A stretch of 62,681 nt of DNA, counting the filler, from Rhabdomonas costata (lineage: Eukaryota): the NCBI GenBank assembly GCA_019059605.1. It is 15 parts of 15 records of this genome, joined end to end, with 100 filler letters (N's around TTAATTAATTAA, not from the genome) between each part and the next. Parts side by side here need not be neighbours in the genome. Positions count along the whole stretch, not along the records: positions 37,721 to 41,803 come from JAHMHO010000373.1; 14 more parts are not named here. One strand, 5' to 3'. Below, piece after piece: positions 4,085-58,991 of the stretch; positions within the stretch are counted from its first letter, which is position 1; each line of letters starts with the position of its first letter. The notes beneath the pieces are model-generated. The model was given only the letters and a program-made list of their open reading frames with translations, was not told the DNA's origin and searched no databases. Both the position numbers and the translations under genes were made by a program.

Positions 4085-4184
4085 NNNNNNNNNNNNNNNN
4101 NNNNNNNNNNNNNNNNNNNNNNNNNNNNTTAATTAATTAANNNNNNNNNNNNNNNNNNNNNNNNNNNNNNNNNNNNNNNNNNNN
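4085..4184. other. Artificial contig-concatenation linker (first of 14)
   Basis: N-run + TTAATTAATTAA + N-run. The same linker core starts at 4129, 8351, 12542, 16750, 20941, 25121, 29299, 33491, 37665, 41848, 46023, 50197, 54380 and 58552, spaced ~4.2 kb apart. The N-runs at 14973-15456 and 31467-31870 lack it and are scaffold gaps. Confidence 0.98.
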
Positions 4185-6330: not shown

Positions 6331-8574
6331 CCCAATGATGGAGAGCGTCGTTAAGTGGACAACGTCAGATGGCATCGACCTGCTGGAACTAGTTATGGAC
6401 GTTCCTCCTCACATATGCCGCTCTTTTTGGAGGTCGTCTTTCACAAAAAAAAAGTAGTATGCTGGAATTGTAGTCATAGCAGCCACTGTGCGAGTGCCTG
6501 CCCAGATATTCGTTGATCACAACCCAGCGGAAGCGATGAGACCAGCCGAGCACCTCCACCAGCTCCCTCTCGTTCTCCAGCTCGCCCGACTTCTCCATCA
6601 CTACCGAGGCCACCCACAACCTTGACGTGGACGCAATGAGGTTTGGCTGCGCTTCCACTTCCAAAACCACGCACCCACCTCCGCACCCCCCCGCCACACC
6701 TCACCTCCCAACTCGTTCACTACCGCCATCGATTTACTCTTCTCCACTCCATCCCGCACATTTAACTGTAAACACCCATGTTTACATACGACCACCAACC
6801 ATCAGTTTTCTTGTTCCGTTTCACGTTCAACTATTGCCTTTACAACTATGTTGTGCGCAATTAATCCCCCGAAAGTCAAATTGTCCCAGTGTACCTCCAA
6901 ATTGAGCCCCTGGATCTCGTTTTATGGCGACAGCGAGTGAGTAAACTCAAGTTGACATCACCAATGTTGAGGCGGAAATTGTTCCAGACGTTTGTTTACC
7001 CAACGGCCAGAAGTTGTAGACAAACGGTCACAGGAAGACGCTATGAGTAAGGCCACAACCAGCCGGACAACTGGGCCAGCAAATTCTAAGGTGTGTGTGG
7101 AAGCACTGAAATTTGGAGGACACATAAGGACCCAATGCTGCAACCTTTGGCAACACCGTGCGTCCTCCAGACTGTGCCGTCCGACCCCGCTGTTTTTCAG
7201 AGCGAGCTGGCCGCACATGGGATAAATCTAACATGATGGATGCACCACCAGAAACACAGTCAGATGCATTCAAGCTCGCACCGCGGACGTTTGCAAGACG
7301 AGAGGAGACGACCCTCACGTCCCTCAGGCATCCAGAGCACGGAGAAGCAAACCATGTTGCCACGAGTAATGGAAGCAATCCGGAAGACCCACCAGAATCC
7401 ATTTTGTTTTTTGTTGTAAAAGAACACTACGACCCACACTGACAACCTCTTGCAATCAAAGCGAGCATTCTGTGGTGAGTACAGGCCAAACGCTGAGTTG
7501 ACATTTTCAATGCTGGGACAGCCCTCTTCACCACATCGAGCACCCAAGCAGACTGACATGCGTGTCCTCCAGTTCACCCGTATGTCATAGGAACTGTGTC
7601 AGGACATAGCGAAGAGCTCCTCTCGTCAAAATGACGTTTCCACCCAAACAAATATTAAAAAGAGTCCGAGAAGCGAGTGTTATCCTACATCCCTGATCAC
7701 TTGTCTGTCACAATTTACTCACCCACACCGTCAGACACCATCTTTTACCCATGCTGCACACAAAGGCCGGAGGAAGCAGTGCAACCCCAATAGAAGACGA
7801 CATACCTGTGCTTCAAGGCGTCATTCATCATTTCTTGTGGCGAGAACGAGGGCATTTTGGTTACATAATTTTCGCGTTCTTCTAGTTGTAGTTGACTGAA
7901 ACGTTTGCACGGTTTCCTTCCGCAATCCGGAAAATACCCATCACTTCCAAGGATTTTTCTACGGGTAACAGGCATTCGTCCCCAAGCCTTGTCGAAGCAA
8001 AAGCGGCAAATCACACTCCAGAAGTGACCCATCGGGAAGCCGCCACCACACCCTATGGACAACCAAAAGAGCGCTGGCATCGAAGGGCTACAGTGCTTTT
8101 CCCGATTGTGGAGCACGTGATTGCACCGCTTTGGTCAGAATCTGCAGCATACTGGAACCCCCACATGTGCACACCTCACTCTGTTCTTTGAGTTCCGACC
8201 CTGATAACCCGCACAACGGCAGTGTTGGACCCACGCGTCTCACACAACTCAGTTGAACTCTTGTTCTTCATCTGTGTGTCATGGAATGATCTCTCCCCCA
8301 CCCACANNNNNNNNNNNNNNNNNNNNNNNNNNNNNNNNNNNNNNNNNNNNTTAATTAATTAANNNNNNNNNNNNNNNNNNNNNNNNNNNNNNNNNNNNNN
8401 NNNNNNGTTGGTGGGTTCTTGTTTTGGGGTTGGAGGTCTTGGGGTTGAAGGCTACGTGGTGAAGTAAGGGTATGGATGTTACGCCTACTACCAGCGTTGA
8501 AAGAGTGAGCCTAATCCTGAGATCTCCAACCCCTTTATGCATTCCTAGGGGGAGTAAGAGAGTAAGGGTAAAGG

Positions 8575-33546: not shown

Positions 33547-36500
33547 CGCTTAAAGTAGTTCTCAGAAACTAGACTATCCCCAGGCAGAGGTCCGACGCAC
33601 TGACGCCCAAAAAGACGAAACGTTCCCGCAGCGTAAAACTGTTTTGCGCTGGACACGTCTGCCAAGCTATCCAGAGACCAGAACAGCGGGGTCTCCCCGT
33701 CGCGGCTGAATGCCACGTCAACAAACTTCTCCATCTCAACCTCCTGCTCTTGTTCCTGCTCCTGAGCTTGCTCCTGCTCTTTCTCTTGGCTTTCCTCCTG
33801 CGCCAGGTTCTCGGCCATCTGGTGGTTACACGATTCTCCGGCTTCATGAAGAATGGCATCAATGCTTTCCGAACATTCAGTAGAAGTGAAATCTTTAAAA
33901 GCCTTCCGCTTCTCCAGGATCAACCCAGCCACTGTATGGGGTCGGGGAACATCGGTGGGGATGTCGAAGCACAGAGGCTCGAGGAAGACCTTTAGCATCT
34001 GCTCGGCCTCGCGAACAGCTGCCCCCATGCCTATCCCTTCTGGTTCTCTGGCCTCAAGCACGTACCTCCATGAGTCCAGTAGCTTCTGAAAAGCCAGCTT
34101 TCGCCACTCGTTGTTGGCGTTCTGAAGGTGCAGCTGAGCAACCTGAGTCTTCTCAGAGATGATCTGGTTGAGCACTAGCCACGCCACGATTTTGGGAGGA
34201 CCAAGCTCTTTCTGACCTTCCGCACAGCAGGATAATTCCTGACTCACCAGCTCGCTCAATTCCGGAATCACCAGCAGCTGGATGGTTTGCCCCTTTCCAA
34301 TGCCTCTCATTCGGTAAGCTCCTTGTGCAAAGTCCCGAAAGGTCATGTCCTTGCCCAACGTCAGGACTGCCACCGCTGTAGGGGGGTGGTGAATATCCAT
34401 CCCTGTGGTGTGAATCTGGTCATAGTATACAAAACGACGTTCCATAGGAACCCCGCATTCCTCCAGAGAGACCACCTTTCCCCCGCTTTTGAGTATGGCC
34501 ATCTTCTTGTCGTCTGTATCGAGATAAACTACGGCCTCCGCGTCAACACCTTCATTTAACAGCCACTCAGCCACTTCCCAGTTGGACAGGCCAGTGACTA
34601 AGGCCCCAGTATCAATTAGAGCTCGAATTGAAGGGTCTCTCGCCTTGGCAACCAATCGGAGAATTTTCTCCGGGTTCCAATCCATTTTCGAATCCCAAGG
34701 GAAGACCGTCACAATCTGAGAGTTGGTGAGGGTGCAAACCACCTCACCGTCCACCCCGCTTTCAAACCAATTCTTCGAGTCGTTCTCCTCATACAGGTCC
34801 CTGGGAACGAGATGGCTGGGCGTACCCGAAAAGCCGACCCTGCTGCCAAACAGGACCTTGCCGCCAACATCCTGTCCAGATGCGCTAAGCTTCTGCTCCT
34901 GGTAGAGCATAAATCTGGGGAAGATCTGAAATGAAGGGAAGTGGGCACATAAATGGAACAATTTGTGAGCACAAGCCACTCCAAAGTGTAAAGTCCTCCT
35001 GCTTATGCGTTTCTCTGTCAAAACCAGTTACACAGATGGATGCCCCTTTCTTTATCCTGGGTGTAAATGGACAAAAACGTCGCAATGGTCAACTTTACAA
35101 AAACGAATGTATGTGGCTCGAAAGGTGGTGTCTTTTGCTTATTATTAATTCGATTTAGCTTTTGGCCTGTCAAGAATCTCAGTTACCTTGACACAGCGAC
35201 AAAAAAGGGAGGGAAAACGGTATGCACCTTTTGGTCTAGGTACCACAAGATAACGCTGGCGTGCTTCTGGAAGAGGGCGAAAATTGCATCGTGGTGTTCA
35301 GGGTTGATGGGATCATACATCCAAAGGGGGACCACTCTTTCGAACGAAGCTTTCCGGTGCCCTTTATTCTTGGAAGGAAGCTCTACTGCATCAACTTCGG
35401 AATCCTGAAGGCTCCGCTCAACATGTTCACTCATTTCCTCCCCTGATATCGGTTGTGCTGGTTTCTGGGGTAAGCAGGCCCCTGCTTGGAGAACTTTGCA
35501 GCCCGCGGCAGCCACCCACGTTTCAAACACCACACAGGATGGCTTCTTGCTCGCCTGGCCCGCCCCACAGCTGAAGTTCTGCAGCAAGGCAGCCATTATG
35601 TCTCTGAAGTCCGACTCCCGAAGCCCATCGTAGCGGTACGACAAGACTGTCATCCCAATTACAATGTCAGGGTGCGCAAACTCTGACGCCGGTGAGGGAG
35701 TGTCCTTCCCGATAAAAGGGACAGCGAGAAATCTGCGGGTCTGTGGCATTCGAGGGTCTGCAGATAACGCCTTCCTGACATCTTGGGCGGACATCAGCCC
35801 AAAGGAGACTCGGTTGATGTTGGACAGTACATGGGGAAGGAAGGAGCACAACCAGCTCCGCGACAGGTTCACCAGCTTACGATGAATGGTTAGCGGTCCG
35901 AGGTCAGCAAGTGATGATTCCTTTGCATTCGTAATATATTTTTCAATTTCGTCCTCAGGAAGTCCATCGACGTCCTGCATCTTCACCCACATCATCACCC
36001 ATTTAGCGATGCAGGCCTTTAATTCGGAGTCGTAGAACATCTTCTTCAAAAGTATCAAGTGTGGTACACGTTGCAGGGAGCGGCTGGTCAGACCAGCGAT
36101 AAGCTTTTCGTGCAGAGCTTCCAGCAACGCCGCGGCAGAGCTGTGCTCCCCTTTCCTTGGCGTACATTTGCCGTCAAACGCACGGAGTAAGCCGTCGATA
36201 ATGTGAAAGGGAAGCCGCCAACGGGCTTCTTTGTAGTCCAACGGGGACTTCTCGCCGAGAGGGAAGTTCAGCTCGCTCCTTAGCGGGTGCAGGATCATGT
36301 CAACCTCGTCCATGAGGCATTTTCCCTCCCGAAAGAGCGTCAGGCAGCTTTGCAGATCGTCAACGTTCCACAAGGAACTTCCGTCAACGGAGCACTGATA
36401 GACGTCCTCCACAAATCGCAATTGCAGAGACTTCACCGCAGTCGGGGTAGTCAGGATAACCCCACCGCTATCCTTTACCCGGCGCAGCTTTTGTAAAAGC

Positions 36501-37620
36501 CTGGGGTCGTAGTCCGACGCCCTCTCAAAGGCAAACGTGCATACCGTTTTTTGCAGACATCCGGAAAATGTGACCTGCAGCTGACGCAGGGACATGTCCA
36601 TGAGGGCAGAAGGCACCACCAAAATCACTAAGTGCTTTCCTTGAGCCAGCTTCAGGCAGGAAAGGGGTGAAACCACAGCCGTCTTACCGGCGCCCATGAT
36701 CATTTGACGAATGGATGACTTCCCCCTGCCCAGAATCCCGACAATGTCGTCGATCAGTTCCACTTGTCGTGGCCTGAGGAAAATCGATCGCATGTACTCA
36801 AATACTAAGTACGTAGGATCGAAGATGAAAGATTGCCCAGAGAGGCGAACATAGGTTCGTTCTGAAGTCAAAACGGAGGCCAAAAGCTCTGCCTTCTGAG
36901 AAGCAGCAGCGGCAAAGGAAGCTACCAACTGCGGTGCTTTCTGCGCCACAGAATCTAAAATATCGACTGTGGTTGGGCCGTTTTGGTGGTCCCAATGAGG
37001 GCTTTTCCGGCACAGCGACAGAAGCTCCTCACAAAGAACAATGGCTCGGTTGGTGAGGTAAACTCTCACGGCGAAAAAAAGTGTTAGACAGCACAATTCC
37101 AATATTGCCCGACACTGCCGGTGACTGAGGAACTTGTTTATCTTTTCAAGTTCCCGCTGATGCTGAGAAGAAAGTAGAGCCGAAACCAGGTAGGGCCAAG
37201 TCAAGGTCAGCTCACCTCCGGACATTTGATCAAGCATGAATCGCTCTTTTTCGAGGTCCAACGGGTCCTGCCCGCTTTGGCTCAACAGCACAGTATTGGC
37301 ACCCATGGAACAAGTCTGGGTGCCAAATGTCGTCAGACGTAAATCTTCGTCTCGAAGCCGCACCAAGTCTGTCAAGAGCGCGCTGACGCCTTGGCACCGC
37401 ACTTCCATCTCGCTCCTGGAAGCAGCAACCAATGCCTGAGGCTGAAAGCCAGCAATGGTATATATGACCAGGTTTTCGCGTTTCCTCTGGTACGCATCAA
37501 CGTCCTCCTTGAGCCGCTTTATCAGCTCTTTAGCAGCAAACGACTGAGCTGATCGGTGAGCGGACAAGTCAAAAGGAAGCGGCTTTGCCGCGCCTCCCTG
37601 CAGGGGGACCAACACCACAC
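33547..37620 (-). CDS. Large DUF3638/DUF3645-containing protein with SF2 helicase-like P-loop motifs, partial (exons 37620-35228, 34925-33547)
   Basis: IRQMIMGAGKTAVVSPL (Walker A-like), LMDEVDMILHPLRSELNFPLG (Walker B-like), LAVPFIGKDTPSPASEFAHPD (DUF3645 signature), GFSGTP, ALIDTGAL, YYDQIHTTGMDI, DFAQGAYRMR (motif VI-like), EQEQEQEVE. GT-AG intron 35227-34926 joins in frame (DQK|IFPRFM). Confidence 0.88.
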
Positions 37621-38613
37621 NNNNNNNNNNNNNNNNNNNNNNNNNNNNNNNNNNNNNNNNNNNNTTAATTAATTAANNNNNNNNNNNNNNNNNNNNNNNN
37701 NNNNNNNNNNNNNNNNNNNNGGGGTTGGTGTTCATTCGCTACTCGCCGCTTGGCTTCCACCACGTTGCAAACATGGACGACCATTGGCTTTCCTTTTTGT
37801 GACAGTATCTCTCCGGGTATTACATCCTGCAGTCCGCGGCCTCCTTTCTGCCCGTGCTGGCTCTCGACCCCCAGGGTACCGTTTCTGCTCCTCCCTTTAC
37901 TCTAAGTTATTGACGCAGCGCGTGCTGTGCAGGTCCCTCTTGTGCAGGTTTTATACCACCTTCATTCCTTGGTTGTTGAAAAATGAATCCGAAAAACACG
38001 TGAAGTTGCTGCGTCACTGTGTGCTTTATTTCGACACCCTCTGGATCAATCACTTTTTGCCCGACCCCTGGTTAAGTTGGTTTAAGTAATCATATACCAT
38101 GTTCTTTCCGAGCTGAAGCAGCTGCTTTGCTGGAGATGGGTTGAGGGGACATGTTCCCATGGTCCACTTTTTCTCTTTGGATGTCATCTGCTCATAGGTT
38201 CCATACCTTTCTCTTTCCTTCTTTCTAAGTCCTTTTGTCACTCTTTTTCTGTGGTGGTTGCTCTTTCGTCTCACCGGAAACAAAGAGCAAAAGGGGACGT
38301 CTTCAGTAGAAACAAAACCCAAAAAATGATTACACTCAGTAGTGTATGAGTACACTCATGCATCTTCACCCCCGTAGTTTGGACTGTCTTTCTTTCAGAC
38401 GACAAAAGTGCCGAGGTTCGACCGTGACTACCCATTAGACCAGTCTCTACCACTGCTTCCAACTGCGGCTCTGGGTTAATGGAAATGCCTTTCGAAGCCC
38501 TTAACCAGCAACACTCTGATCACAGCAAAAATACCTGAGCTCTGCGCTCGCCTAAAAATGGCAGCGTGCAACATCATATCATATGTTATTGAGTTCCTGG
38601 GCTTCCGCTGCAG

Positions 38614-41291
38614 AGAACGAGACGATCATTGACCTGGCCGCCTCCCCGGGGGGAAAGACCTCGCACATCGCTCAGCTGATGAAGAACAGCGGGTTGGTGT
38701 ACGCCAACGACCTTAATACCGAGCGCATCCCCGCGCTGCAGGGCAACCTCCACCGGCTGGGAGTCAGCAACGCCGTGGTGACGGAGCTGGACGGCCGCGT
38801 CCTTCCCAAGCACATACGTCAGGCCCACCGGGTGCTGCTGGACGCCCCGTGCACCTGCTCCGGGGTGATCTCCAGGGACCCAAAAAAGAAGCTCACTAAG
38901 TCCAAGCAGGACTTGTTCACGTATGCACCCCCATTCCCGCACCTACACTTCCTTTTTTGTTATGTCACCAGGTCTGATCCGGAAGAAGAGAGAGAGCAGC
39001 TCTGCTTCGGTCGAGACCACTCTTGGATCCTCCCGTAAATTGCATGGAGCCGCTGAGAGTAGGAAGAAGTCTGCAGACGAATGCAACCTGAGACTGCCCG
39101 TGTGCCAGTTGGCCACTGGCGCGTTACGGAAGAGCCGTTCTCTCCTGATCACTTGCTCTTATATATAGCCATCATGTTCACTCGTGTACAACTGCGCGAC
39201 CTTGCAACTTGGATTGATAGGGTACATAATTTGCGGGCACAGGTGCTCTCGGCTGCAGAAGGAGCTTCTTCTGGCTGCGATCGATGCCTGCCGGTGCGGC
39301 CCAGGCAGCCCAGGGATCATCGTGTACAGTACGTGCTCTGTGCTGGTACAAGAGAACGAGGCCGTGGTGCAGTACGCGCTGCGGAAGCGGTTTGTGAAGG
39401 TCGTCGAATCAGGCCTGCCCTTCGGGGTGCCCGGCTTCACCGCCCTCCGGGCGTACCGCTTCGACCCCTCCATGAAGTTCGCCAGGAGGTTTTTGTGTGC
39501 GGGTTGGTACAGACCTGTGTAGTATGCACTGTTTTCATTGCCGGTCAATGTGACGCCGGTAGAGGACAAAGCCGAAGCAGGCCTGGGGTTTTGATAGACG
39601 CAAAAAGCCTCCCGAAACGCTGCGTTTGTACCCTCGGCCGGTCAGTGTGTTCGTTCACGGGTCCTTTTTATTCCCCCCCCCCCTGCCTTTTTTTTTGCCG
39701 CTTCATTCCCCTCCCTGCGGAGGGTTTGAGGACAGCATCCACAACAAAGAATTGCTCCATGCCGAACGGGGCCAAATGTCTAAAAATGAATTCCTAGTGA
39801 GGTATGTCATAATATAGTGGTTCACAGGAGTTAGGTGACCACAGTCGTTCCCAGATACCGAAGAATCCTGCGCCCATACACATCCTCAGAAAATCAGAAA
39901 GGGTTTTCACTCACACAGTAGGTAGCCCATCGAGTGGTGGAGCTGAGGAGGGTAAAACGTGCTTTTTCCTCCTCCGCAGGTTTTATCCTCATGTCCACAA
40001 CCTGGATGGCTTCTTCGTTGCTAAGCTGCAGAAGGTAAAGGACGGACCCCGGCACTCCACCAAAGCCGACGATGATCCCGAGGATACCCCTCTTCCCGCC
40101 AACCCCTTCGCTCGCACCGCCGAGGCTACCACTTCCTCCACGGCCAAGTCCAAGCCCAATTCCAAGCCCGTGATGCTCGGAGGGGGTGGTTACAATACTA
40201 ACTCAAAGTTCCAGGCCACCGCCATGGAACTGGCTCGCCCCATGCTCCTCGCCGCAGCCCAAGCTGTGCCCCTGTCAAAGGACCTATCTCGGCACTTTCA
40301 CATCGCCGAGTTTGGTTGCTCAGAGGGAAAGAACTCCATGGACCCTGTTCGGGCCATTTTGGGGGTTTTGGAGCAGCGCGTCTCTTCGACTGCGAAGCCC
40401 TCAGACAAGCTCGAAGTTCTTGTCACCCACGAAGACTTACCTGCCAACGACTTTGGAAGTCTCCTGAAGCTTCTTCAGGACCCGACGACCTCGTATATGT
40501 TCCCCGCAGAAAGCGGAGAAAAAACAGGGACGGAGACCCGGGGCTACCCACATCTGAATGTCTTCCATAGTTTGGTGGGACAGTCAATGTACAGCCGGAT
40601 CTTGCCTCGTGACACTGTCGACCTGGTTTTCGCTTACACCTGTCTTCACTGGATCTCGCGGAAGCCCTGCGCTATCCTCGACACAGTCCTGCCCTACCTG
40701 ACGAAGGACCCTGTAGCATATGAGGCCTTCTTCACCCAAGCCAGCTCGGATTTGCGGGGCTTTCTCCGCCTGCGAGCGGAAGAGGTGCGCACAGGAGGTG
40801 CACTGCTCTTTCACATGCCCTTGGACGACCGCGAGCGCACTCAGCTTCCCGTGAATCCCATCCTAGCTGCCTGGTCTGGCGCCGTAGATAGTTTGGTAAA
40901 AGATGGTCGCATTACCCCTGAGGTCCGAAGTGCAATGGCCAGCTGCGATTTTGTGTGCCGCCCAGCCGACATCCGCAGGATCATCGACGAAGTCACTGCC
41001 CCCGGCGCGGACTGGCGACTGGTGGAGTATAAGATGGAGGAGGTGAGCCATCCCGCGGGGAACGAGTACGTGGCCGGTCGCATCACCGCCGAGAAGCTTG
41101 GGGAATGGGTGGCAAACACCTGGAAAGCGGTGTTTGCGCACTCTTACCGACACGGCTTGCTCCAGAGCTTTAGTGAGAAGGAGGCCGATGAGGTGATTGA
41201 CGAGATAGTACGACGTTGCCGCGCTGGCATTGAGGCCAAACCGGGCCCCATGGAGATTACCTACGTGTTTGTGCACCTTGCGCGGAATTGA
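38614..41291 (+). CDS. NOP2: NOP2/NSUN1-type m5C rRNA methyltransferase, 3' part (exons 38614-38920, 39243-39488, 39980-41291), last exon continuing into a SABATH methyltransferase domain
   Basis: IIDLAASPGGKTSHIAQLMKNSG, GNLHRLGV, VLLDAPC (motif IV), LQKELLLAAID, IVYSTCSVLVQENEAVVQYALRKR (motif VI), RFYPHVHNLDGFFVAKLQK. All junctions are GT-AG and frame-compatible. Confidence 0.92.
40173..41291 (+). CDS. SABATH-family (Methyltransf_7) SAM-dependent carboxyl/N-methyltransferase domain, intronless
   Basis: MLGGGGYNTNSKFQ, IAEFGCSEGKNS, HEDLPANDFGSL, VGQSMYSRILP..VDLVFAYTCLHWISRKP, QASSDLRGFLRLRAEEVRTGG: all canonical SABATH motifs in order. Confidence 0.92.
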   Translation: MLGGGGYNTNSKFQATAMELARPMLLAAAQAVPLSKDLSRHFHIAEFGCSEGKNSMDPVRAILGVLEQRVSSTAKPSDKLEVLVTHEDLPANDFGSLLKLLQDPTTSYMFPAESGEKTGTETRGYPHLNVFHSLVGQSMYSRILPRDTVDLVFAYTCLHWISRKPCAILDTVLPYLTKDPVAYEAFFTQASSDLRGFLRLRAEEVRTGGALLFHMPLDDRERTQLPVNPILAAWSGAVDSLVKDGRITPEVRSAMASCDFVCRPADIRRIIDEVTAPGADWRLVEYKMEEVSHPAGNEYVAGRITAEKLGEWVANTWKAVFAHSYRHGLLQSFSEKEADEVIDEIVRRCRAGIEAKPGPMEITYVFVHLARN

Positions 41292-41903
41292 ACCAGACGT
41301 CTTGCGTTATATGCTCTCAGCCTTGCTGGGGGATATATGACGCTGCCGTTTTGATTCTGGATCGTGCCCTTCCTTCTGCAAACAAGCTTGGTTTCACCAC
41401 TAGACCACCAAGTTACAAGTTCATCAAAAGCCACGGCCTCGACTGGAAAGTGTCAGGCTCATCACCTCATAGGGTCGCCTTCTTGATTTGCGTTCTTCAC
41501 GGTGTCCGTTGCTCTCCTTCTCCGTATGTGACTTCTGGATTCTCCCACTCCGTTTGTGATTGACTTCTGGATTCAGATCTCTCTTCGAGCAGACTATTCG
41601 CCAGAGTCTACTCCCAGGATTTCTTCTTCCCCTTTTTGTTGCGGCTGGCGTCTCTTCCGTAAGGTTTCACTCCCGCTGGGCTTCGAGAAGTTGCGTCTGC
41701 GACAGCATTTATTGAATTTTTTGTTTTATATCAGACCACGTCCATCTTCACTCTTTGCTGGAAAAAGGCGAAGGTGGACGTGGTCTGATATAAAACAAAA
41801 AACNNNNNNNNNNNNNNNNNNNNNNNNNNNNNNNNNNNNNNNNNNNNTTAATTAATTAANNNNNNNNNNNNNNNNNNNNNNNNNNNNNNNNNNNNNNNNN
41901 NNN

Positions 41904-44900
41904 CCTGGACGGGCGCGCTGTGCGACCGTTGTCAGGCCGGGGTGTACGGGGGGTCCTGCACCCTGGGCTGTCCCGGAAGCGTGTCCAGCCCGTGCTACAA
42001 CCACGGCACCTGCTCTGACGGGATCAACGGCACCGGGGCGTGCACTTGCGAGGTGCCCCCCCGCCCTCGTGCCCTTCCCCTAAGCATGTCTGCTCTCCAT
42101 CAGCTCTTCTTCTAGCAGTGGGGTGTCACGAAGGTCTCAAGGGCCAATAACACAGCTACGTCTCATTGCAGCTGGCAGCGCTGTCACCAAGCCCAGCACA
42201 CACGACGAGACTGCCGTGCTGTCACCCCGACTTTTTGAGAAATATGACCTATGCAGAGGTGTCCGATGCGGGCAATCCCGAGTAGCAGTCCCACCCAACG
42301 GAACTCAGCTGCCCAATGCTTCTCAAACAGGAGTTCTTTGGGCTGGTGGTGCAAATGCTTGCTGGATAGCTCTTGCATGGGCGGAATGCGGGCTCATTTT
42401 CCTCCAGCGAAATGGCCGGAGATCGAGCTGTTGTGGTGCTCAAGGCTTGCAGCAGCAGTTTTGAAACACCGAGGGGCGCAAGAAGAGACGGCCAGAGATG
42501 CCATCTTGTGTCAAACCAAACACCAAGCACCAAACATCAAACACCAAACCCAGCCGCAAAGCAGCCTACACGGGACCGAATTGGAGTGCAGATGACGACT
42601 GGTGCTGAGAGTTGGCGGAAGGAGAACAACTGTGTGCTTAAACTGAAGTCTGGCCCTAACATTTGTGATAAAAAGTGGCGTTCAGTATTTGTATCCCTCT
42701 GTTTCTCCAGTCTGCGAGTTTGAATCTGAACGGTGAGCTCTGAAAAGCAGGGCTGCACATGCTGCTGCCAAGGAGTATGTATAACTGCCAAAATGGCCTT
42801 CTAGTCGGTTTCAACTCTGCTTGTGCAAATTTCCGGCGGCGGCGTTTTGCAGGCGAACTACCGCCTGAAGGACTGCTCAGTGGCATGCCCTCTGTCATCC
42901 TCTACGGGGTTGGTGTGCGGGGGCCATGGCACGTGCAACTCCGCGGGGCTGTGCGAGTGCTCTGGGCAGTACTCCGGTACAACTTGTGAGGTTTGTTTCT
43001 GCCCGCGCACCGCCTCCTGCGAGAGGAGGGCCTTTGTTTTGTCGTCTGTCGCTTTGCTGCAGCAGAAAAGATCCTCTTCCTTGTCACACGGAAGGCTTCC
43101 TTTCGGTTTGCACATGCGCCAGCGGGCCAATCGAAGGAGTAGGGGGCTGTTGTCTCAGCTCCCTACTCCGAGGACCATATACGCTCAGGAATTCAGCTTC
43201 TGCTCGCAGTGCTTTTGCGTTTGTAGGGCTGCTTTGCGGGATGGTATGGATCGGGCTGCGACCAGCAGTGCCAGGGTGGTGTGGCCAACCCTTGCTCCGG
43301 GCATGGAGTCTGCAACGGCGGCACCACAGGTATACTGTTCCCCTTCACTCCCTCCGTATGCGCTTTCTGCCTTTCAAAGGACTTTCTCGGTGCGGTGAGC
43401 TTCAGTGGCACACAGTTTATTGAATGAGCCCCCCCTCTCTCACTCTCTTTCACCACTCTGCTTCGGTGCAAAAGTCTTCCTGGGATGCGGGGGGGGGGTA
43501 CTGGTGGTTGTTTGTGTTGTCCTAATTAAAAGCAATGCGCAGCGCTACTAGAGACGAGTAGGAGAGATCGGCCTCCAGAAATTTTTGACGTTCAAATCGA
43601 ATCGGGCGGCCAGCTAGTCGTCTATCCAACGCACAGATATGCACAGTTTTCCCACTGCACAGTCCCTGTTTTCCCATGCATCCCTTCTGAACCTTTACAA
43701 TATTTTTTTTTTGCTCTTGGGGGGTTGGGGGGGGGTCCCAGGCTCACCCACCCGGCCTTCACCTCTGGGCCTATGAGGCGTGCAAGGCGTTTGGGCTCCC
43801 TTAAGAATGAGGAGGGGGGTACTTCATCGAAATTGATGCTTGAATGTCGCCAGTAAGACTGGGTTAACACATCCACGCGACCCCCTGGACCGGACTGCAG
43901 GAAGGGGTTGGTTGCATTGCTATTGACAGTGTTTTGAAATCCCCAAAGGGAATCTCTGAGCACGGCGGGACCGCCGCCTGCCCACCAGCGCTCAATCCTC
44001 GCTGAGAGGCACCCCCAATCCACCCACATACACTGAGACACGCACGTAGACGTTTGTGTGAATACAGAGAGATAGCCGTAGATGATGATTCAACACTCTC
44101 AGGCGACGGCACCTGCCAGTGCATCACCACCCCGGTGGCGTACGTCGGGAGTTCCTGCCAGTACCAGTGCACGTGCAGCAGCCACGGGACGTGTCAGGCC
44201 AATGGCACCTGCCTGTGCATGGCCTCCGACTCTACGGGCTACTGGACAGGTACTGCGCTGCGCCTGCCGTCCCGCGCCCTTCTCAGCATGCACTGGCTTT
44301 TGCAGACGCTTGTTGGAAGGACACAAATCCTGCTAAGCTGGATAAAGAATAAGGGAATGTTTTTGTTTGGAGGTGTCCAGCACTTGCAGGGTGGAGTTCT
44401 TGGGGCTTTTGCTCAGGTAAGAACTGTGACACCTGCCAACTGTTGTACTCCAACTCCAGCACCTGCGCGTTGGCCTGCCCCATGGTGGATGGCTCGATCT
44501 GCAACGGCAAGGGCACCTGCCACGAGGGGGCATGCAGGTTTGGGCGCACCTACGAGTCCAGGGGGACAGGATGTCTGGGGCTGGGGCCTCCCCACCACGG
44601 GAGTTGCTATTGGAATAGGTGCTGAGGGGGCGGCTTAGTGTCTCATTCATGTTGTTTATTTTTTTTGGTCGAGCAAAGGTCCCTTTACCCTGATCATATC
44701 ATTCTGGTCGTTGCCGGAACAGTGAATACCTCTCCCTTTCCCCCGTCCGTCCTTTGCCTGGGTCTCTGGGTTGATTAACATCCGCCTGCCAGCTGTGAAC
44801 GTGAGTGGCATGTTCAACTTTTCTCAGGAGTCCAATCACACCGCATTCCAGATGGTACCGTAGATGTTTCTCCAACTACTACACACATCTCTCTCGTTTG

Positions 44901-57795: not shown

Positions 57796-58991
57796 GTATG
57801 CCTCCCTGCTATCTTTGATGCACTTTGCCATAAGACATATAGATGCCACAATTTCAAGCCGCAGCGGTGTGGGGAGATCTCTTTGCACGCCCTGGCGTGA
57901 ACAAGTGAGGCTTTAGGTGACCAGGTTTCTGAAGGTGAAGTGAGAAGGTTGAACTGTCAGGTAGATGTGTAATTGGATTTCGTATTGCCTGTGGACCAAG
58001 AAACAGATACGCCCGTGCATGTCGCTTCTTTTCTTCATGTGCAGGCTGGTTTTCATCACTTACGATGATCTTTGTAAGTAAGAGGTCTTTGTTGAAGAGA
58101 CAGGCAAATGCTGGAACTGCAACTACCGCAACAAAAACCGCAAAGCAAAAATAGGACAACGACCAAAACCTCGTGTGCGCTTCACTGTGCATCACTGTGC
58201 ATCACTGGAACTTACTGTCGCTGCCTCACGGTGCCTCTCGTTTTTTATTCCTTGAGCTTAGCTCTGGAGCCATGCTGATGTGTTGATGTGTGAAAGAGCT
58301 GAAAAGGGCAACGTAAGAGGTAAGATTCCCGGGAAAAGAGAGCGGTGAAAATAGGCGCACCGGTTAAAACTGTTTTCGGAGGGGGGGCACCATGTGTGGG
58401 TCTTTGGAACGCACAGCGTGGAAAGGGGAGGTGCGGAAAGAGGTATGCCTTTCCACGTCACAGCGAGCCCGCTGCTCCCCTCATCACGCCGCCCCCCCAC
58501 CCCCACCNNNNNNNNNNNNNNNNNNNNNNNNNNNNNNNNNNNNNNNNNNNNTTAATTAATTAANNNNNNNNNNNNNNNNNNNNNNNNNNNNNNNNNNNNN
58601 NNNNNNNGGTGTTGACTGGCTTCCCCTTGAGCTGGTTTTTTCTACGACATTTTGAATTCGCGGTTGTCAGTGCTCTGGCGCAGGCTGCGGAGGTTGTTTT
58701 TATCCTGCCTCCCCTTTCAACAGTATATTGTTTTACCGGCCACTTGTGGTGGATAATCTTCACGGCTTTGGATGCAACCACTTACCTAAACTGGGAGGCA
58801 AGGCCGATCAAACGCAAATGGAAGACTGCGGGGCCTCGGTTTTGCGCAGGTCAGCATGCAGTGAACCAGGGCTCTTTTGTCTGCTCTCTGAGCTCATGGC
58901 AAACAGTTGGGGGTCGTTGAACGTCCCTCCCAATCTCTCCCAATCTGAAGGAAATCTCCCTCCTGCGCTGTGATATCGGAATACAGGGTGC

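Follow-up and report, generated by a model that had tools for sequence, protein, structure and literature searches.

NOP2 (Nop2p, NSUN1), an essential enzyme of ribosome assembly, is highly conserved and normally ends in a short C-terminal tail that is disordered. The plant SABATH members of the Methyltransf_7 family (PF03492) are stand-alone cytosolic enzymes, and the mycobacterial fatty acid O-methyltransferase (FAMT) of the same family is a stand-alone bacterial enzyme. Here we describe a locus of the eukaryote Rhabdomonas costata (GenBank assembly GCA_019059605.1) at which these two families appear to be joined, one exon encoding, in a single reading frame, the C-terminus of NOP2, a linker of coding character and the whole of a Methyltransf_7 domain. 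The locus lies on the plus strand of a 4,083 bp contig (JAHMHO010000373.1) occupying positions 37721–41803 of the window, by which we mean the whole 62,681-nucleotide stretch of 15 chained contigs that was analysed. With modest confidence, we favour a genuine NOP2–Methyltransf_7 gene fusion at this locus, which we regard as a new pairing of domains, each from a well-known family, and not yet as a discovery.

Counts among relatives given below refer to the 120 listed of 1,101 NOP2 relatives and the best 150 of 1,304 Methyltransf_7 relatives. The first half of the predicted protein shares with NOP2 the PF01189 domain, the LLDAPC and TCS motifs, the C-terminal RFYPH..DGFFVAK motif and 57–62% identity over ∼240 residues, and its NOP2 matches carry names such as 25S rRNA (cytosine2870-C5)-methyltransferase and 28S rRNA (cytosine(4447)-C(5))-methyltransferase. 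Known NOP2 proteins end 5–228 residues past the GFFxAK motif (78 of the 120 examined, median 79), whereas here 421 residues follow, comprising a second enzyme. This second half resembles the mycobacterial FAMT (structures 5f2k, 5f2n and 5f2o) in Methyltransf_7 family membership, in the same stretches binding S-adenosylmethionine (SAM) and in fold (root mean square deviation 2.8 Å), although the identity is only 24–25% and AIQWLS of the bacterial enzyme corresponds to CLHWIS in the window protein, a stretch which we take to be as in plant members. These three entries were the closest solved structures both by sequence (E 3e-24) and by fold (template modelling (TM) score 0.87–0.89, normalised to the target). 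The plant SABATH enzymes, among them salicylic acid methyltransferase (SAMT, 1m6e), indole-3-acetic acid methyltransferase (3b5i) and the xanthosine/caffeine synthases (2eg5, 2efj), share the Pfam family, the fold and the conserved N-terminal M-GG-YN-NS-Q cap motif (E 1e-13 to 7e-11, TM 0.78–0.84), but they are more distant from the window domain than the bacterial enzyme, SAMT itself matching with E 1e-13 and TM 0.80 and the best plant entry, 8wwq, with E 1e-14. The label SABATH given by the original prediction therefore holds at the level of the Pfam family but not as membership of the plant SABATH clade, and as the bacterial FAMT is nearest by both sequence and fold, the domain is better termed a FAMT-like carboxyl methyltransferase, the substrate class being putative. 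Fusions of Methyltransf_7 were present among the listed matches, namely CMAS with Methyltransf_7 (P0148), Methyltransf_7 with AMP-binding (P0101) and tandem repeats (P0005, P0006 and others), which indicates that the domain tolerates joining at either end, including to an N-terminal SAM methyltransferase. The partners in these known fusions are lipid or small-molecule enzymes and in no case an RNA methyltransferase, whereas here the partner is NOP2.

The join itself lies within the last exon (39980–41291). Its acceptor, cctccgcag, ends at 39979, as had been read from the sequence, and the AG at the end of the preceding exon together with the first G of the last exon encodes Arg, which is followed by FYPHVHNLDGFFVAKLQKVKDGP from 39980 onward. 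The NOP2 C-terminal motif (R)FYPHVHNLDGFFVAKLQK occupies 39980–40034, where tblastn with NOP2 gave 76% identity over 29 amino acids (39969–40055), and the NOP2 end in this exon, RFYPHVHNLDGFFVAKLQK, is in the same frame as the linker and the Methyltransf_7 domain. The linker (40035–40172, VKDGPRHSTKADDDPEDTPLPANPFARTAEATTSSTAKSKPNSKPV) comprises 46 codons rich in Pro, Ser, Thr, Lys and Ala, contains neither a stop nor an ATG, and starts with a possible splice donor, AAG|GTAAAG. In the frame of 39981, GTG 40170 and ATG 40173 are located 63 and 64 codons downstream, and the first in-frame stop after the NOP2 end motif is the TGA at 41289–41291. Thus, what had been claimed for this junction, that is, a stop-free linker of about 45 residues rich in Pro, Ser, Thr and Lys, a second open reading frame (ORF) at 40170 in frame with 39981 (189 nt), and a frame remaining open up to 41291, was borne out by the analysis. 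The encoding of the NOP2 C-terminus, the linker and the second domain by one exon in one frame is supported at the DNA level.

As 17.7% of the 138-nt non-coding windows of the contig were free of stops and the linker is also open in its two remaining frames for 41–44 codons, an open frame of 64 codons is unremarkable by itself. Codon usage was more informative. Using a codon table trained on 3,218 codons from long open frames of other contigs, and non-coding windows drawn from the introns and the 3' flank on both strands, the linker scored +0.198 bits per codon in the fused frame and −0.30 and −0.21 in the other two. The score of 0.198 was matched by only five of 3,030 non-coding windows and by none of 832 out-of-frame coding windows, and it falls at the 18th percentile among 419 in-frame coding windows. 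Likewise, none of the 3,030 non-coding windows attained the GC content of the linker (0.64) or its GC content at third codon positions (GC3, 0.74). By these measures the linker clearly resembles translated sequence, precisely in the fused frame and beyond chance. Besides codon usage, NOP2 has no stop ahead of 41289, which likewise goes beyond chance. The +1 frame of the linker (40039–40173) is open for 44 codons, is Pro-rich and has the negative codon score (−0.30), and its stop is a TGA whose last base is the A of ATG 40173. An HMMER alignment of the second half of the linker (query residues 32–64) with N-terminal extensions of relatives was rejected as a low-complexity match, since composition-adjusted BLASTP started only at V64.

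Upstream of the last exon, the NOP2 half was resolved into four further exons. The first (37721–37763, ...GLVFIRYSPLGFHH), truncated at the start of the contig, enters the BLASTP alignment of the spliced product from residue 3. A GT-AG intron of 42 nt that contains an in-frame TGA (37764–37805), and the removal of which gives a contiguous NOP2 alignment, separates it from an exon at 37806–37875 encoding YLSGYYILQSAASFLPVLALDPQ plus one nucleotide, where tblastn with two NOP2 proteins gave 67% identity over 24 amino acids (37803–37874). A 738-nt GT-AG intron (37876–38613), which has a GC content of ∼0.5 and no coding signal and forms part of the non-coding set, precedes exon A (38614–38920). 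Exon A carries the SAM-binding core with LLDAPCTCSG and matched PF01189 with E 9.4e-32 and 110.7 bits (38616–38918), the cut-off being 27 bits. A 322-nt GT-AG intron with negative coding scores in every frame (38921–39242) leads to exon B (39243–39488), which encodes VYSTCSV and the C-terminal subdomain (PF01189 E 7.5e-12, 45.8 bits; tblastn identity 52–55%), and a 491-nt GT-AG intron (39489–39979; GC 0.50) with coding scores of about zero or below leads to the last exon. The start at 38614 given in the original prediction is therefore that of exon A, and the NOP2 sequence begins earlier, in the exons at 37721–37763 and 37806–37875. With an intron of 42 nt next to introns of 322, 491 and 738 nt in one gene, the organism has very short and ordinary introns alike.

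When the five exons were joined at their GT-AG sites, they yielded 658 codons, and the only stop was the terminal one. Residues 3–243 of this spliced product aligned to NOP2 proteins in a single BLASTP segment with 57–62% identity; all 120 listed NOP2 proteins matched, with a median alignment end at residue 243, and those matches of the NOP2 half that bear a family name are NOP2-type proteins. Exon A reached up to 65% identity to NOP2 proteins, and its best NCBIfam model was TIGR00446 (nop2p), for which single exons scored 122 and 55 bits against a cut-off of 210 set for the whole protein. The assignment to NOP2, as against other NSUN, RsmB or RsmF members, is accordingly provisional. Both cysteine motifs, LLDAPCTCSG and VYSTCSV, were intact in the spliced translation, as had been claimed, and we take the Pro-Cys in motif IV and the Thr-Cys in motif VI to be the two catalytic cysteines. 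As the contig begins inside the first exon, the N-terminal half of NOP2, in which the RsmF_N/pre-PUA part and a basic nucleolar-targeting region would be expected, lies off the contig and only ∼240 C-terminal residues are encoded on it. Of the joining of NOP2 to a complete SABATH enzyme that had been proposed, the complete Methyltransf_7 domain consequently stands, while a complete NOP2 cannot be claimed.

The Methyltransf_7 domain (SABATH/FAMT-type; 40173–41291) is intronless and comprises 372 codons and the TGA. The HMMER search against Pfam, by which the original prediction was to be checked, placed PF01189 on exons A and B and PF03492 on the last-exon product, the latter with E 4.3e-34 and 118.6 bits (gathering cut-off 29.8) over profile positions 7–316 of 335. 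The domain aligned end to end with stand-alone proteins of ∼350 residues, the best being P0004 (357 amino acids, 38% identity, E 2.3e-50). In an alignment of 52 sequences, all eight invariant columns (G112, G116, N118, S119, D152, D157, R265 and E268) were matched, in keeping with the earlier view that the SABATH motifs are intact, and so were M65, Y71 and Q78 among the columns conserved to at least 90%. AlphaFold modelled the last-exon product with a mean predicted local distance difference test score (pLDDT) of 87 and a predicted TM score of 0.84, with the second domain mostly above 90, and the model together with Foldseek recovered the family fold of a Rossmann core with a helical cap. Residues 4–18 and 20–58, that is, the orphaned NOP2 end and the linker, fell below 50, but as no alignment rows covered the linker such low values are expected and are weak evidence of disorder at most. 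The ESM Atlas again returned the family Methyltransf_7, and a word-indexed protein search with the second domain gave a single near match, P0003, with 29% identity.

The DNA thus shows with confidence how the exons are arranged, that a single frame stays open, that the linker is coding in character and that both domains are intact. Several points nevertheless weigh against a genuine fusion, and those that speak for a particular alternative are given with it below. A transcript or protein across 40035–40172 is, first of all, a prediction from the DNA. Furthermore, the frames used to train the codon model come from other contigs and are unverified as genes, and 46 codons are a small sample. The pairing of the two domains was, moreover, encountered nowhere else: RsmB-F was found in none of the 10 longest (at least 524 amino acids) of the 150 listed Methyltransf_7 relatives and PF03492 in none of the 120 listed NOP2 relatives, and among the 78 NOP2 tails measured after GFFxAK none exceeded 228 amino acids, against 421 here. 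A search for longer proteins carrying the second domain returned none among 5,742 candidates, and a metagenome scan with this domain gave seven loci of 29–36% identity, none of them with NOP2. The literature, searched at the level of listings, contained no relevant report of SABATH or Methyltransf_7 paired with NOP2, NSUN or Methyltr_RsmB-F, nothing linking SABATH with fatty acid O-methyltransferase and nothing on point for the fatty acid O-methyltransferase of Mycobacterium marinum. Among the proteins, metagenome loci and literature searched, the pairing thus did not come up, in line with the original remark that no such architecture was known. That the architecture was not found conserved in other organisms is weak evidence, with no close relative in the databases searched; as the second domain shares only 38% identity with its nearest full-length relative and the nearest NOP2 reaches at most 65%, the absence reflects unsampled kin and not uniqueness.

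A further point against the fusion is a step in GC3, which was 0.86 in the upstream NOP2 exons (222 codons, 37722–39488) and 0.67 in the second domain (372 codons; z 5.5), and 0.49 to 0.75 in the long open frames of other contigs. The step sits near the boundary between exon B and the last exon and not in the linker. It may stem from a 5'-to-3' gradient, from the recent joining of two genes that differ in their history, or from a mis-join inside the intron.

The alternative that survives best, although we consider it unlikely, is that the two halves are made as separate proteins. The methyltransferase would be translated from ATG 40173 on an mRNA of its own, transcribed from a promoter inside the locus or released by 5' processing. 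The NOP2 mRNA would end otherwise, e.g. with the GTAAAG donor (40035) spliced to a terminal exon that lies past the second ORF or outside the contig, and in that case the open linker would represent what was once an N-terminal extension, or the 5' region, of the downstream gene. The differing GC3 of the halves and the overlap of the +1 frame TGA with ATG 40173 agree with this explanation, whereas the GC content and frame-0 codon usage of the linker are exon-like and unlike the introns and flanks of the contig. As regards initiation, no ATG occurs in frame between 39813 and 40173, and the Met encoded at 40173 is the one that the family conserves in its N-terminal cap motif. The cap motif was recognised in 108 of the best 150 relatives, with a median of 10 residues ahead of the Met. 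In 19 of the 108, all predicted proteins, the equivalent Met is the first residue, which counts for a start at ATG 40173 and against the fusion; in the other 89 it is internal. The residue preceding it is most commonly Val (30 of 89), as is also the case here, and PVM is common to the window protein and its nearest two relatives, P0004 and P0087. Since the Met is mostly internal in relatives and is preceded here by Pro-Val, translation from upstream is favoured, and at this locus it could only come from NOP2. Initiation at ATG 40173 to give a separate product is possible, but an internal start of this kind would leave the fused product in place.

Also on the side of separate proteins, and against the fusion, is P0087, the sole close relative of the second domain among the matches listed. 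This 88-residue fragment, encoded on a 1,617 bp metagenome contig and 76% identical over 55 residues, has an ATG of its own eight codons upstream of the conserved Met, so that a stand-alone gene is possible in a relative. After EFGCSEG, the sequence of P0087 becomes unrelated, its first residue there being V (a GTx codon), which would be consistent with an intron in a position at which the window gene is uninterrupted.

With respect to splicing, the AAG|GTAAAG at 40035 is donor-like and is the best consensus-like donor of the contig, the donors in use being GTTGCA, GTACCG, GTATGC and GTTTTT. The linker contains six AG acceptors, however, and five of them would give introns whose size is a multiple of three, so that most splicing from 40035 would still yield a fusion; the sixth would give a 31-nt intron. 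Acceptors past 41291 would require an intron of 1.26–1.7 kb enclosing an intact gene, compared with 42–738 nt for the introns observed, and would open into sequence without coding signal. No terminal exon for a stand-alone NOP2 was found on the contig, which stops at 41803. A search for the dinoflagellate spliced-leader motif with up to three mismatches gave no match and no hint on trans-splicing either way.

Decidedly unlikely, in our view, is an assembly or base-calling artefact, be it an indel in the linker that hides a NOP2 stop by displacing the reading from frame +1, with its TGA at 40171–40173, or a chimeric join of two loci or two NOP2 copies. In its favour, and thereby against a genuine fusion, the gene is known from a single 4.1 kb contig of a very fragmented assembly (contigs ∼4.1 kb), and the 3' end of this contig (41717–41802) carries an odd inverted repeat, the 40-nt arms of which are 90% complementary and enclose a loop of 6 nt, while no stem of more than 10 pairs was found at the other 29 contig ends of the window. 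This hairpin may be an artefact of assembly or amplification, or else a natural hairpin or a transposon end. The GC3 step by the boundary of exon B and the last exon and the open +1 frame over the entire linker point in the same direction. On the other hand, codon usage in the linker prefers frame 0, the score of −0.30 telling against frame +1, and it would in itself be peculiar for two neighbouring eukaryotic genes if the stop of one overlapped the start of the next. The last exon alone, moreover, holds clear NOP2 sequence (18 codons), the linker and the whole second domain, so that a mis-join within the intron would leave the fusion intact. No repeat was detected at the junction and no 14-mer in common with the other contigs of the window. 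A direct repeat, D2 (37927–37954 and 39959–39986, 75% identical over 28 nt), was taken as a chance match.

That the gene is a decaying or redundant NOP2 paralogue, an accidental fusion copy that is non-functional or being lost while a normal NOP2 is encoded elsewhere, is very unlikely, for although the fusion is unique among the listed relatives, the 658 codons are free of stops and frameshifts, both NOP2 cysteine motifs and the invariant residues of the second domain are all retained, the splice sites are intact, and the NOP2 exons combine a very high GC3 (0.86) with 57–62% identity to NOP2 proteins.

The window as a whole was found to consist of 15 contigs of 4,072–4,122 bp, chained via spacers in which TTAATTAATTAA is flanked by runs of 50 N. 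These spacers occur 14 times with regular spacing (4085–4184, 8307–8406, ... 58508–58607), and thus only positions 37721–41803 are physically tied to the finding described here. The pieces are seemingly sorted by similar size, so that their side-by-side placement is without biological meaning. The DNA is eukaryotic in character: it has GT-AG introns, its GC content is ∼0.50 beyond the exons, and within exons the third codon positions are rich in GC. Rfam gave no match over the whole window, and no second copy of NOP2 or Methyltransf_7 was found within it. The contig placed before that of the fusion (33547–37620) carries on its minus strand an 811-codon open frame (35186–37618) that runs up to the contig end and contains DUF3638 (E 1.8e-30), DUF3645 (E 2.8e-14) and a P-loop-like motif, GAGKT. 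The next contig shows Cys-rich open frames with EGF-like spacing at 41904–43400, e.g. CDRCQAGVYGGSCTLGCPG...CTCE and GHGTCNSAGLCECSGQYSGTTCEVC in the ORF list.

If the favoured reading of a genuine NOP2–Methyltransf_7 fusion is correct, a NOP2 gene and a downstream methyltransferase gene on the same strand would have lost the stop, the spacer and the start between them, and the usual short disordered NOP2 tail would have become a 46-residue linker into a separately folding SAM-dependent carboxyl O-methyltransferase. One chain would be made, with two independent SAM-binding catalytic domains held by a flexible linker. The NOP2 half would presumably carry the fusion protein to pre-60S particles, and the second half would probably still methyl-esterify a small carboxylic acid, the SAM cofactor perhaps being the only common ground of the two. 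Far more doubtful, and in our estimate a long shot, is a coupled fusion in which NOP2 brings the carboxyl O-methyltransferase to nascent large subunits, where it would methyl-esterify a ribosomal substrate and not a free metabolite. Candidate substrates, which we name as speculation, would be a carboxyl-bearing modified nucleoside, a side chain of a ribosomal protein or assembly factor, or a C-terminus; if true, this would represent a new kind of ribosome modification by a SABATH-type enzyme.

A genuine fusion would mean that the NOP2 tail tolerates a 40 kDa cargo in the form of a whole second SAM-dependent enzyme, and that a member of a family for small-molecule carboxyl methylation has been placed on a nucleolar protein. 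Should the two halves not cooperate, the locus would be a clean read-through fusion of neighbouring protist genes and a caution for gene callers. Should they cooperate, it would point to a methyl-ester modification, new to science, that is tied to ribosome biogenesis.

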